Origin: an uncultured Planctomycetaceae bacterium
GTDB lineage: Bacteria; Planctomycetota; Planctomycetia; Planctomycetales; Planctomycetaceae
DNA: 64,000 nt
Assembly: GCA_963815195.1 (NCBI GenBank)
Contig: CAWFGE010000013.1
Location: 1,120,001-1,184,000 of the forward strand
Direction: 5' to 3'
Part shown: positions 59,868 to 63,777 of the stretch, piece after piece
How the letters are laid out: each line of letters begins with the position of its first letter
Position numbering within the stretch: position 1 is the stretch's first letter
Translations under genes and position numbers: made by a program
Notes under the pieces: model-generated
What the model saw: the letters and a program-made list of their open reading frames with translations, nothing else
What the model was told of the DNA's origin: nothing
The model's database searches: none

Positions 59868-59938
59868 TTGGGTGGCAGGCCCTGAGGAACGAAGGGCGTG
59901 GTCTTCGCCCTTCGCTGCGCTCAGGGACGTGCCACCCA
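59868..59938. repeat. REP-like palindrome (GGGTGGC...GCCACCC family)
   Basis: Same arms as 24284-24368. Confidence 0.75.
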
Positions 59939-60355
59939 CGCATGACTAACTTCTCAAATTAATCGTAAGCGGTTGGGTGGCTAGGGCGCAAGTTCCCCTT
60001 TGAATAAGGCTTGAATTGCGAATGCTGGGGCTGTGGCCGGGCGAGAAAAACTTTGCACGGCCCCAGGCCTCAGAGTTCCTTTTTCCTCGGAACCTTCCTT
60101 AGCGCCCCAGCCACCCCGCCGCCGCCACGCCCTTCGCCACGCCCTTCGCTGCGCTCAGGGACGTGCCACCCACGCATGACTAACTTCTCAAATTAATCGT
60201 AAGCGGTTGGGTGGCTGGGGCGCAAGTTCCCCTTTGAATAAGGCTTGAATTGCGAATGCTGGGGCTGTGGCCGGGCGAGAAAAACTTTGCACGGCCCCAG
60301 GCCTCAGAGTTCCTTTTTCCTCGGAACCTTCCTTAGCGCCCCAGCCACCCCGCCG
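59906..60355. repeat. tandem duplication, two 216-bp copies (period 234)
   Basis: 59906-60121 versus 60140-60355, identical except 59983 A / 60217 G. Confidence 0.92.
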
Positions 60356-60377: not shown

Positions 60378-61970
60378 TCAGCCGAGTTTGTCCAGCGCCT
60401 GTTTCAAGGGTTCGCCTTGTTTCGGGTTGACCATGTGGATGTAGGCGATCATGCCGCGGACCCAGCCTTCGAAGTGCGGCCGGCCTTCGCGGTTCTGGCT
60501 TTCCAGGCCTTCAAACTGGGCGCGATGCAGAATCGCCCGCAGCCGGCGGACCAGTTTCCGCGGCACGCTGGGATGTTCGTTGACGACGATCCCCGTCACC
60601 ATTTGGGCGGTGTGCGGGCAGTGCACGCGGGTTTTCTTCTGGTTGATCCGAAAGCCCTCGTCCTCGGCGATGTGCCGGATTTTCGCGAGCAGCCAGCCGA
60701 TCTTTTCCGCCACCTCGCCGCTGCCTGAGAACGTGATGTCGTCCGCATACCGCGTATACCGGCTGTCCAGTTTTTCCGCGAGCCCCGTGAGGCGTTTGTC
60801 GAGTTTCCAGGCGACGAGATTGCTGATCGCCGGACTCGTGCACGCGCCCTGCGGCAGCGACCGCGGCCCGGTGGCGACGTGGAATTTCGTGCCGGCCAGG
60901 AGCACCGACCGGCGCGGGCATTCGGTGGTCAACAGGGCCAAGATCGTGGCGACCGCGGGCGAGTAACCGATCCGCCGAAAGAATCCCATCACGCGGGGAA
61001 AGGTGATCGAGGGGAAAAACTCTTCCAGATCGCAATTCACGACCGCGGACTGATGGGTGTGAAGCTTCGCCCCGGTGACGGTCGAGCGCCCGGCGACAAA
61101 CCCGTGGGCCGCGGCGTGCACGGGGATGTTTTTTAGGATGTTCGCGAGAATCCAGCGCTGGCAGCGGTCCATCTCGCGGTGCGGCTTGGCGAGTTCGCGG
61201 AGCCCGCCGCTCTTTTTGGGCACGCTGAAGCGAATGTAATGCGTCCGCGCCGAGGCCACGTTATGAAATGCCAGCCATCTTAACCGGGGAATCGAAACGT
61301 CGAGCGCCTTCGCCAGATCGCCTGGCGTCGCCAGCACCGGGAGGCCGAACTTTTGCAGCGATTCCACGTTCGCCCGGCGGTCGGCAAGGCCCTTGGAAAC
61401 GCCTCGGCCGAGAAAAATAATGTCCGCCTGACGCCGCTCCGCGATTTCCGCCTGCCGCTGCCTTCTTCGCTCGGCGGCTTCGGCTTTTTTTTGCTGCTTG
61501 AGGTCGGCCCGGGCCTCTTTTGTTTGTTCGAGCACGCGGTTCGCGCGGTGGGCGACGTGGCGCATCGTCGGGCGGACGGCGTCCATCTCCGCACCGATTT
61601 CGTGGATGTCCTCCAACTCTTCCGGCGTGATGAAACCGTGCGTGACCATCGCCCGGTCGATCAATCGCGTCCGCGGATCGTCCGGCGGCGGAATCAAATC
61701 CTGCCGACCAAACCAGGGGTTCATCCAGCCGAGTTGGTCGGCCTCGGCATGCATCTCCGCGTGGGACATCGTCGTGTATTGGCCCACGTCATAAGCTTCC
61801 GGCGGGATGATCCCCACGGGTTCAACGCGAACGGCTGGTGATTCCGCGGCGGGGGACGGCTTCTCGGGCGGCCAGCTTTCCGTGGGCGCCTGATGCGGTT
61901 CGAGCGGTTGATAGGGTTTGGCGGGCTCCGCCGGGCTGAACAAGGAGAGCAACCAATTGAAGAATCTCAT
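60378..61970 (-). CDS. retron-type reverse transcriptase with a long N-terminal extension (about 530 aa)
   Basis: KKSGGLR, AAHGF, DLEEFFPSI, LPQGACTSP, YTRYADDITFS, QMVTG; ATG 61970 with GAGGA RBS. Confidence 0.93.
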   Translation of the reverse strand: MRFFNWLLSLFSPAEPAKPYQPLEPHQAPTESWPPEKPSPAAESPAVRVEPVGIIPPEAYDVGQYTTMSHAEMHAEADQLGWMNPWFGRQDLIPPPDDPRTRLIDRAMVTHGFITPEELEDIHEIGAEMDAVRPTMRHVAHRANRVLEQTKEARADLKQQKKAEAAERRRQRQAEIAERRQADIIFLGRGVSKGLADRRANVESLQKFGLPVLATPGDLAKALDVSIPRLRWLAFHNVASARTHYIRFSVPKKSGGLRELAKPHREMDRCQRWILANILKNIPVHAAAHGFVAGRSTVTGAKLHTHQSAVVNCDLEEFFPSITFPRVMGFFRRIGYSPAVATILALLTTECPRRSVLLAGTKFHVATGPRSLPQGACTSPAISNLVAWKLDKRLTGLAEKLDSRYTRYADDITFSGSGEVAEKIGWLLAKIRHIAEDEGFRINQKKTRVHCPHTAQMVTGIVVNEHPSVPRKLVRRLRAILHRAQFEGLESQNREGRPHFEGWVRGMIAYIHMVNPKQGEPLKQALDKLG

Positions 61971-62013
61971 AACGCCGGCTGTTCCTCGCCTCGCCCGATC
62001 CTCTCGGAGGGAA

Positions 62014-62227
62014 AAACACGACCGGCCAACTGACTGCGAGCGGCGGACCAAGGTCGTTCACTCAGGCTCCCCGACGTACTGTCACGGGGGGAAGCCTTGG
62101 CTTGTCGTGGCCCACGTGACAGTACGTCGGGGAGCCACACGAACAACGGCCTTGGGGAAGCATGGCAGGGCAAACTCAACCACGGCGGATCGCCGTAGTA
62201 AATTGGTCTCAGTTGGCCGGCGTGTTT
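62014..62227 (-). ncRNA. retron msr-msd non-coding RNA
   Basis: a1/a2 inverted repeats at 62014-62033 and 62209-62227; msd hairpin 62048-62155 with a 22-bp perfect core; msr hairpin 62179-62199; lies directly upstream of the RT. Confidence 0.85.
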
Positions 62228-62282: not shown

Positions 62283-62354
62283 TGAGCCGCGCACGTAGTA
62301 AGCGGTTTTCAAGATCTCAGAAATCGTAATACCGCTTACTACGTGCGCGGCTCA
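62283..62354. repeat. REP-like 24-bp inverted repeat (GAGCCGCGCACG family)
   Basis: TGAGCCGCGCACGTAGTAAGCGGT / ACCGCTTACTACGTGCGCGGCTCA. Confidence 0.88.
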
Positions 62355-62422: not shown

Positions 62423-62692
62423 TCATCCCTTCCGGCCGCCTTTTTGCCAGTTGATGCGGTTGTGGGTGAGGATGCCGTTCCGGAGGGCGCACTGCAGGCA
62501 GACTTTTTCGTCATCATGCTGCAGATAGACTTCGCCGTGCATCAACAAGTGGAAAAAATCCTCGCCGGGCTTTTTGTGAAAGCAGAACTCCTTCTCCCAG
62601 TTCTGCTTGACATGCGCGGCCCAGCCCTCGGGAGCGGACAGATAAGCCCGGACATCGGGGACATCGTCTTCGGTGGGATCTGTTTCGGCCAT
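62423..62692 (-). CDS. small hypothetical protein, possibly metal-binding
   Basis: GAGGTG RBS; Cys/His residues and CLQC. Confidence 0.65.
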   Translation of the reverse strand: MAETDPTEDDVPDVRAYLSAPEGWAAHVKQNWEKEFCFHKKPGEDFFHLLMHGEVYLQHDDEKVCLQCALRNGILTHNRINWQKGGRKG

Positions 62693-62718
62693 CACATCAC
62701 CTCGCAGGAAATAATGTC

Positions 62719-63777
62719 TCAACCGTCGCTCGGCAACTCGACGTTCAGGGACTTCGCCAGATCGACGAGGGCCGACCAGTTTCCTTCATCGAGCGGGATG
62801 CCTTCCGCGGAACGCTGTTTCAAAACCCGGCGTTCCGGGTCGCCGGGGAGCGTGATATTCTCGACTCCCTCGATCCGTGGAACGCTGCGGACGTAGTCTT
62901 CCAATTGGCTGACCTCTTTGGCGAGATGATCCCGGCCCGCGAGCTGATTGGGATCGATCACGACGAACAGGGCGCAGTTGCCGATGGGCGGGGGCGGATC
63001 GGGATAGGCGCACATGCCGCCGGAGAGCGCCCCGCAGAGCATCTCGATCATAAACGCGAGCCCGAAGCCTTTGTAAGCCTGGTCGCCGCCCATCGGGAGG
63101 ATCGTGCCCGGCGGATCGCCGTAGAGCTGGTTGGGGTCGGTCGTGGGTTTTCCGTCGGGATCCAACAGCCAACCGGGCGGGACCTGTTGGCCGGCGATGC
63201 GTTTCACGCGGACTTTGCCCTCGGCGGTCGCACTCGTGCCGAAGTCCAGAATAAACGGGCCTTCCTTGCCGCCGGGAAAGCCGATGCACAAGGGATTGGT
63301 CCCCAACCGGGGCCGTTTTCCGCCGACGGGCGCGACCCGCGGGGCGGCACCGTGGGTGTTTGCGCAAATGAGGGCGATCATCTGTTTCTCGGCGGCCATT
63401 TCCGCGTATTCGCCCAACCGGCCGATGTGGGCCGACTGCCGGAGTGTGCCGCAGGCAATGCCCGCCAAAGCGGCTTTTTGCATCAGGCGTTCGGTCAGAT
63501 CCCTTGAAAGCACCTGCCCGAATCCCCACCCGCCGTCGCAAACGAGGGCGCTCGCCGTTTCGTGGACGACTTTAAGCGTTGCCCCGGAATGCAGCCGGCC
63601 TTCCTGGACCTGTTTGACGTAAAACGGAATCCGCATCACGCCGTGGGAATCGTGCCCGCGGAGGTTGGCTTCGACGAGGCTCCGGCCGACGATCTGGGCT
63701 TCTTCCTCGTTCGCCCCGCCCGCGGAGAGCAGCGAGACTCCAAAATTCAACAGCACTTCGCGAGATAAAGTCGGCAA
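62719..63777 (-). CDS. Ldh_2 (malate/L-lactate/sulfolactate dehydrogenase) family oxidoreductase
   Basis: GHDSHG, HIGRLG, GTNP, YKGFGL, LPG. Confidence 0.92.
   Translation of the reverse strand: MPTLSREVLLNFGVSLLSAGGANEEEAQIVGRSLVEANLRGHDSHGVMRIPFYVKQVQEGRLHSGATLKVVHETASALVCDGGWGFGQVLSRDLTERLMQKAALAGIACGTLRQSAHIGRLGEYAEMAAEKQMIALICANTHGAAPRVAPVGGKRPRLGTNPLCIGFPGGKEGPFILDFGTSATAEGKVRVKRIAGQQVPPGWLLDPDGKPTTDPNQLYGDPPGTILPMGGDQAYKGFGLAFMIEMLCGALSGGMCAYPDPPPPIGNCALFVVIDPNQLAGRDHLAKEVSQLEDYVRSVPRIEGVENITLPGDPERRVLKQRSAEGIPLDEGNWSALVDLAKSLNVELPSDG

Follow-up and report, generated by a model that had tools for sequence, protein, structure and literature searches.

A type XIII retron RNA in a Planctomycetaceae bacterium whose cognate partner genes lie at other loci and probably act in trans

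Type XIII retrons were the first retrons to be discovered. They belong to reverse transcriptase (RT) clade 10 and include Retron-Mxa1 (Mx162), Mxa2 (Mx65), Sau1 (Sa163), and Nex2 (Ne144) (PMC7736814). In the passages of Mestre et al. 2020 that deal with this type, it is defined by linkage of the RT gene to a gene, upstream or downstream, for a SWIM zinc-finger protein (cluster 114); a HEAT/ARM gene often precedes the SWIM gene, in many but not all members, and an origin of the SWIM protein from a DEDE transposase is suggested (PMC7736814). According to the same passages, homologs of known partners are missing from most hosts of orphan retrons, and the question of action in trans is left undecided (PMC7736814). 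Type XIII has already been reported from Planctomycetota, with 26 of 143 candidates (PMC13712802); none of the 17 type XIII rows in the census table of another study comes from this phylum (PMC10849725). The literature we searched, in which subscription papers are thinly covered, yielded no split or trans-acting type XIII retron, no partner with a clamp fold, and no defense mechanism for type XIII. Some of the RTs discussed below may possibly be listed as partner-less in supplements of Mestre et al.

The window analyzed here is a stretch of 64,000 nucleotides from an uncultured Planctomycetaceae bacterium (genome G000). An earlier note, made from the sequence of this stretch, had read positions 62014-62227 as an msr-msd architecture on the minus strand, with a candidate branching G and an msDNA of about 125 nt. 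Comparative sequence analysis confirms this element as the msr-msd RNA gene of a type XIII retron, and the reading on the minus strand is supported by the adjacent type XIII RT gene, by a covarying structure, and by wobble pairs that split by strand. The features of the locus are as follows.

62209..62227, minus strand: a1, the 5′ inverted repeat, which pairs with 62014-62033 and shows two-sided change at 17 of 19 pairs among 22 homologs
62208, minus strand: candidate branching (priming) G in the context GAGA, the first base past the a1/a2 stem and presumed site of the 2′-5′ link; G in 22 of 22 homologs
62179..62199, minus strand: msr hairpin of 9 bp with a 3-nt loop; 99% of cells paired
62153..62165, minus strand: conserved msr-msd linker; most columns conserved in 19-22 of 22 homologs
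62048..62155, minus strand: msd hairpin with an outer stem, an internal loop with conserved sequence, a perfect 22-bp stem, and a cap hairpin at 62092-62103
62034, minus strand: G opposite the branching G; G in 22 of 22 homologs
62014..62033, minus strand: a2, the 3′ inverted repeat, which pairs with a1 and shows covariation
60378..61970, minus strand: type XIII retron RT of 530 aa with an N-terminal extension; PADLOC RT_XIII, YADD at residues 408-411, VTG at 458-460
62035..62170, plus strand: predicted RT-DNA (msDNA), with an inferred start and a 3′ end between about 62160 and 62175

Every coordinate in the earlier description of the RNA was checked against the sequence, and all of the named stems lie where they had been placed. 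The a1/a2 pairing (62014-62033 with 62209-62227) contains one bulge, as described, and on the minus strand G residues at 62208 and 62034 do face each other. All nine pairs of the msr stem form, one of them as G·U, the 22-bp stem (62065-62086/62115-62136) has no mismatch, and the mini-palindrome AAGCC-TT-GGCTT assigned to the cap is found at 62092-62103. The outer msd stem (62048-62058/62145-62155) stands as to its position but not entirely as to its pairing, which consists of 10 Watson–Crick pairs plus one C·A mismatch in the RNA; the latter is a T·G wobble in DNA. RNA folding upholds the structure, with an energy of −124.3 kcal/mol (z −9.65) that 0 of 200 shuffles equal, and the DNA fold of 62035-62165 (z −6.44) is likewise equaled by 0 of 200.

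The element combines the features of a retron noncoding RNA (ncRNA), namely contiguous a1 and a2 repeats, an unpaired G after a1, msr and msd hairpins, and covariation. The msr hairpin is probably the site recognized by the RT. The element is present as a single copy in the genome and as one copy each in genomes G000-G003. Searches of Rfam gave no family at the gathering score and no retron family, only chance miRNA-like matches, and a scan for sigma-70 promoters, uninformative for Planctomycetota, found none on the minus strand ahead of the RNA.

Covariation was assessed with 22 homologous RNAs aligned on sequence alone. Two-sided change is seen at 46 of the 61 pairs of the structure proposed in the earlier note, which bears that structure out, and none of 500 shuffles reaches any of the measures used. 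In the true register 79.6% of cells are paired, compared to 33-52% in controls in which the structure was slid along the alignment, and RNAalifold recovers the same four helices. The proposal that G62208 is the branch point gains support from the invariance of G62208 and G62034 across the homologs, and the register of the branch site is supported by exchanges of U-A for C-G two pairs away from G62208. Realignment guided by the model, a procedure biased in favor of the structure, gives 97.8% pairing in the long msd stem, whose sequence is almost free. Our ncRNA model also matches RNAs adjoining other type XIII RTs, at 17-55 bits. Five genomes carry two ncRNA copies (L149:7404-7866, L146:3889-4434, L147:5521-6007, L050:3552-3778, and L051:5697-5917), arranged in tandem before the RT or SWIM gene or with one ahead of SWIM and one ahead of RT.

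Wobble types were counted in 38 of the 46 model matches, with five distant matches, two truncated ones, and one weak second copy left out. The msr stem has 75 G·U pairs versus 1 A·C, whereas the msd stems have 2 G·U pairs versus 27 A·C pairs in the RNA, which correspond to G·T on the DNA strand. In the long msd stem, 823 of 832 cells are Watson–Crick and none is G·U; the longest perfect msd stem spans 14-27 bp (median 22.5, n = 38). Because the wobbles divide by strand in this manner, the msd appears to be selected as DNA. This division is what one expects if the msr is selected as RNA and the msd as DNA, and lends indirect support to such selection.

In retrons, copying starts one base inside the facing G, and on the strength of this rule we place the start of the msDNA at 62035, the start that the earlier note had put forward. 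Its 3′ end of about 62160, for a product of about 125 nt, is better regarded as a guess, given that 62160-62175 is possible; ends anywhere from 62156 to 62178 give equal fold energy. A length of 125-140 nt is plausible from these sequence considerations. In the relevant passage of Palka et al., msDNA termination is ascribed to RNase H1 and tertiary structure (PMC8989520), and an RNA:DNA overlap of 8 bases is given for Mx162 (PMC6868368). The conserved linker at 62153-62165 probably serves as the termination region or as the RNA:DNA overlap, and may be the latter.

The RNA lies upstream of the RT gene with a spacer of 43 nt (61971-62013). The RT scores 508.9 bits against the PADLOC RT_XIII model and 365.8 bits against the next-best model, falls within clade 10, and carries an extended N-terminus, as do type XIII RTs. 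The hallmarks of retron RTs in general are also present, since YADD is intact, as is the VTG with which region Y begins. The retron region X motif is NAxxH, which is also the family consensus (N-A-x-x-H); it reads G-A-K-L-H in this protein. The closest solved structure is that of the Ec86 retron RT, and dN/dS of the gene versus two sister genomes is 0.17. A homologous RT listed under the name of the cultured planctomycete Thalassoroseus pseudoceratinae is 61% identical. Only housekeeping neighbors surround the retron in the window: downstream lies a UbiD decarboxylase gene, upstream a 99-aa ORF and a gene for an Ldh_2 dehydrogenase.

Several other observations were made around this locus. The 99-aa ORF (62423-62722), upstream of the RNA, is conserved in sister genome G001 and has no match in Pfam or NCBIfam. 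A palindrome with 27-bp arms at 62283-62354, also upstream of the RNA, is REP-like, has many copies genome-wide, and is missing from the equivalent site in G001. Just downstream of the RT gene is a 216-nt near-identical tandem duplicate (59906-60121 and 60140-60355) built of genome-wide repeats, which may be genuine or may have been created by the assembly. The flanking palindromes were rejected as parts of the retron because copies occur genome-wide. In genome G002 (L001), a hairpin repeat of about 100 nt is inserted between a2 and the RT start. Further retron-like RTs of about 40% identity are common in the family (G000:C20:330446-331456, which is L008, and L022-L039); among the loci searched, the ncRNA model finds nothing at L008 and only weak matches at L023 and L024.

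No SWIM or HEAT/ARM gene flanks the RT gene, a point that the earlier note overlooked, as it did the occurrence of these genes at other loci. Given this lack of linkage, we file the system as a dispersed variant of type XIII. A cognate ARM-SWIM gene pair, with ARM before SWIM, is found on contig C12 (G000:C12:1097005-1100451), flanked by a PCMT gene on one side and a large gene with PQQ repeats on the other, and no RNA or RT was detected nearby. The SWIM protein encoded there is 62% identical to that of locus L004, and in the close homologs L004-L006 the ARM and SWIM genes are immediately upstream. The split arrangement is seen in 4/4 genomes of the genus. In G001, the ARM gene is duplicated and separated from SWIM (L090:3783-5561 and L091:7081-8772), with one copy near an IS transposase gene.

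A second type XIII system is also carried by this genome (G000:C23:234450-246878; L007, L047). Its RT is frameshifted and belongs to another subclade, two IS elements lie in the roughly 9.5 kb that separate the RT gene from its SWIM gene, and a large HEAT protein related to it is encoded on contig C4; no ncRNA was detected for this system. The RT and SWIM protein of C23 were rejected as partners of the RNA examined here, being of the other subclade and 33% identical.

The RT subclade is present in 13 of 401 genomes sampled across the phylum. Among the 12 besides G000, the SWIM gene is directly upstream in 10, a partial SWIM gene is upstream in 1, and the contig ends in 1. We also surveyed 398 genomes of the Planctomycetaceae family, scoring three candidates per genome, and found the RT subclade in 48, the SWIM subclade in 40, and both in 38. 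A genome was called split if its contig reached at least 2.5 kb beyond RT on the upstream side or 1 kb beyond SWIM on the downstream side; these 38 genomes comprise 23 split, 11 linked, and 4 unclear cases. The linked layouts themselves differ, as both ARM-SWIM-RNA-RT and ARM-RNA-SWIM-RT occur. ARM is present at a third locus in 9 of the 10 split genomes tested. In genome G568, the RNA, RT, SWIM, and ARM genes are on four separate contigs, and the RNA sits alone between two genes that look metabolic, as named from their sequences. Several independent splits were considered, but this idea was dropped because a single origin is compatible with the AU test (p 0.46, 24 rows).

The dispersed genes nevertheless carry the marks of maintenance. 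In split genomes, dN/dS values are 0.03-0.17 for RT, 0.05-0.15 for SWIM, and 0.08-0.20 for ARM, resembling those of linked pairs. Distances between RTs correlate with those between SWIM proteins, both in 18 split genomes (r 0.96) and in 25 linked ones (r 0.81). We interpret this correlation as a sign of cognate orthology rather than of coevolution. Mirror trees and co-occurrence are also expected from shared descent, and kin are not independent. That the partner genes are scattered yet maintained suggests that the system works with scattered parts. Judged from these genome comparisons, the locus holds a retron of known type in dispersed form, which probably acts in trans.

The SWIM protein was modeled with AlphaFold2 from an alignment of 37 sequences (pLDDT 70.7); a single-sequence model reached a pLDDT of 36. 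In the predicted model, residues 34-374 match PCNA with a Z score of 15.2 and an rmsd of 3.4 over 225 aligned residues, and Foldseek places the model with PCNA at an E value of 8e-8 and with viral PCNAs as well. A winged helix and then the SWIM finger follow the clamp-like part, and conserved K/R residues are found on the four helices that would be expected to line a ring. Based on these data, we predict a PCNA-like fold for the SWIM protein. A profile search against solved structures gave no significant match, an internal-repeat test of the two clamp domains was negative (probability 0.8%), and a protein atlas contained only SWIM or unnamed clusters. No catalytic domain able to account for toxicity was found. 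A predicted complex of RT and SWIM scored 0.32, while the best control scored 0.00; the runs agree in at least 74% of contacts and the partner pLDDT is at least 69. The mark applied to such predictions is passed by 116 of 157 solved pairs and by 2 of 215 mismatched pairs, and passes as low as 0.32 are mostly wrong unless an interaction is already likely. The models hint weakly at contact between RT and SWIM.

We consider it likely that this locus belongs to an intact type XIII retron and that its partners operate from elsewhere in the genome. In the mechanism we propose, the RNA and RT would be transcribed from the minus strand. By analogy with established retron biochemistry, the RT would bind the msr hairpin, prime at the 2′-OH of G62208, and copy from 62035 to about 62160-62175. 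This would yield a branched msDNA carrying a DNA stem of 22 perfect base pairs; we take the sequence of the stem to be free because the covariation indicates so. Synthesis of such an msDNA seems highly likely. The HEAT/ARM and SWIM proteins encoded on C12 would then join the RT-msDNA in trans, a step that also appears likely. More tentatively, the predicted PCNA-like domain of SWIM could grip the sequence-free stem, with ARM as a scaffold. An equally speculative idea, drawn by analogy with other retrons and slightly favored over a housekeeping role, is that the complex could act as a double-stranded DNA decoy or sensor, such that a phage DNA-processing protein attacking the stem might release or activate a partner.

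One alternative is that the parts were dispersed long ago in a domesticated retron that is inherited vertically and has a housekeeping role, for example in DNA-stress sensing or repair, where a clamp-like protein would be loaded on msDNA. All parts are kept in 4/4 genomes of the genus and are under purifying selection, the loci lie among metabolic genes instead of in defense islands, and Mestre et al. remark that type XIII is inherited vertically and suggest non-defense roles (PMC7736814). However, the system is patchy in the family (48/398), like defense genes, and the retrons with a tested function in the literature searched are anti-phage systems. We regard domestication as somewhat unlikely. 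It could be that the retron is both domesticated and fully dispersed, with RNA, RT, clamp-like SWIM, and HEAT scaffold as separate single-copy genes whose products assemble in trans, a PCNA-like ring around the two-turn sequence-free stem, and a role that is perhaps not defensive; this fuller picture is similarly on the unlikely side.

The genomes with RT and no match for SWIM bear on another alternative, in which the RNA and RT make msDNA as a retron on their own, while the SWIM and ARM genes are retained for a different task and their products no longer interact with it. Stand-alone retrons are known (PMC7736814), and RT persists without a SWIM match in 10 of the 48 RT-positive genomes, three of the ten being 91-98% complete. 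Three others (66-85% complete) retain a normal RNA, and in one the RNA was also not found. Six of the ten constitute one lineage with ARM matches and lower RNA scores. In that lineage, perfect msd stems are only 7-10 bp, and the RT match begins only at residue 122-183 in the five genomes with enough contig. These losses fit the idea that the stem and the RT N-terminus serve SWIM, although they amount to about one event. Against a stand-alone retron, the stem decays where SWIM is not found but stays perfect in split genomes, and the SWIM subfamily occurs without RT in only 2/40 genomes, both fragmented. We rate this stand-alone reading as quite improbable. Separately, an ORF of about 240 aa, labeled methyltransferase-like from its sequence, lies between RNA and RT at L174:2480-3193 and likewise in L175 and L176; these three genomes have no SWIM match and carry a diverged ARM gene upstream, and the ORF is a possible replacement partner.

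A further alternative is that the system is decaying in this genome, or that the split is an assembly or binning artifact. The genomes are mostly metagenome bins, and in every one of the genus's four genomes one of the three proteins is frameshifted. The ARM gene of G000 has two one-base deletions, both in homopolymer runs, against a background of 9 frameshifts in 47 other genes of the assembly; reads of four DNA runs at the ARM-SWIM locus include none across the two breaks, and the gene may be a recent pseudogene. The frameshifted C23 RT, for which no ncRNA is detectable, also fits decay, as do the IS elements close to moved partner genes, which suggest a route by which parts get scattered. 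However, the RT and ARM-SWIM loci of G002 share one contig at a distance of about 283 kb, flanking genes of the loci are shared across sister genomes, and 23 split genomes have flank evidence. Moreover, dN/dS is far below 1, and the RT and RNA are intact here. Decay or artifact is a very unlikely explanation. That the hairpins are a REP-like repeat or terminator instead of a retron RNA, as genome-wide palindromic repeats on either side of the locus (62283-62354 and 59906-60355) might suggest, is refuted by single copy number and by covariation over four helices. The association of the element with type XIII genes in almost all homologs also speaks against this reading, which has a negligible chance.

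Taken alone, the RNA simply adds one more ordinary member to a retron type already catalogued; it is the layout that matters. Retrons are classified by gene neighborhood, and this lineage presents a concrete case of distant partners under purifying selection, with the SWIM-less lineage and its decayed perfect stem as a natural control. It implies that some “orphan” retrons may be complete systems that neighborhood searches miss. If the picture of a domesticated, fully dispersed retron is true, then this would be a natural example of retron partners, RNA included, acting in trans. It also offers an entry into type XIII. A sequence-free 22-bp stem might be linked to a partner with a predicted clamp fold.

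Compared to described type XIII retrons, this system has the RT_XIII best match with its N-terminal extension, the a1/a2 repeats, the msr hairpin, and the long msd hairpin, and the genome encodes cognate SWIM_XIII and HEAT-ARM_XIII proteins. It differs in the placement of SWIM and ARM, which here occupy another contig, and in relatives every part can be found apart from the others. The internal loop of the msd may resemble Myxococcus Mx162 msDNA, as the earlier note suggested; the likeness seen here is that of the RT type. A plasmid search made for the sake of comparison with the Mx162 and Sa163 RNAs returned one distant match. The priming context, GAGA here and GAGC in some homologs, is nearer to that of Mx65 (GAGC) than to that of Mx162 (CAGC) (PMC6868368). 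In contrast to the DEDE transposase origin proposed for the SWIM protein (PMC7736814), the protein here is predicted to be clamp-like. Its model shares with PCNA, 9-1-1, and viral processivity clamps, at the level of fold only, a two-domain clamp and basic inner helices, but sequence identity is about 10%, and the SWIM protein adds a long helical insert, a winged helix, and a SWIM finger. Finally, the locus is like orphan retrons (the Retron-Eco5/Ec107 branch of clade 2, and clade 11) in having an ncRNA-RT cassette with no adjacent partner and housekeeping surroundings, and unlike them in that cognate partners are conserved elsewhere in the genome.
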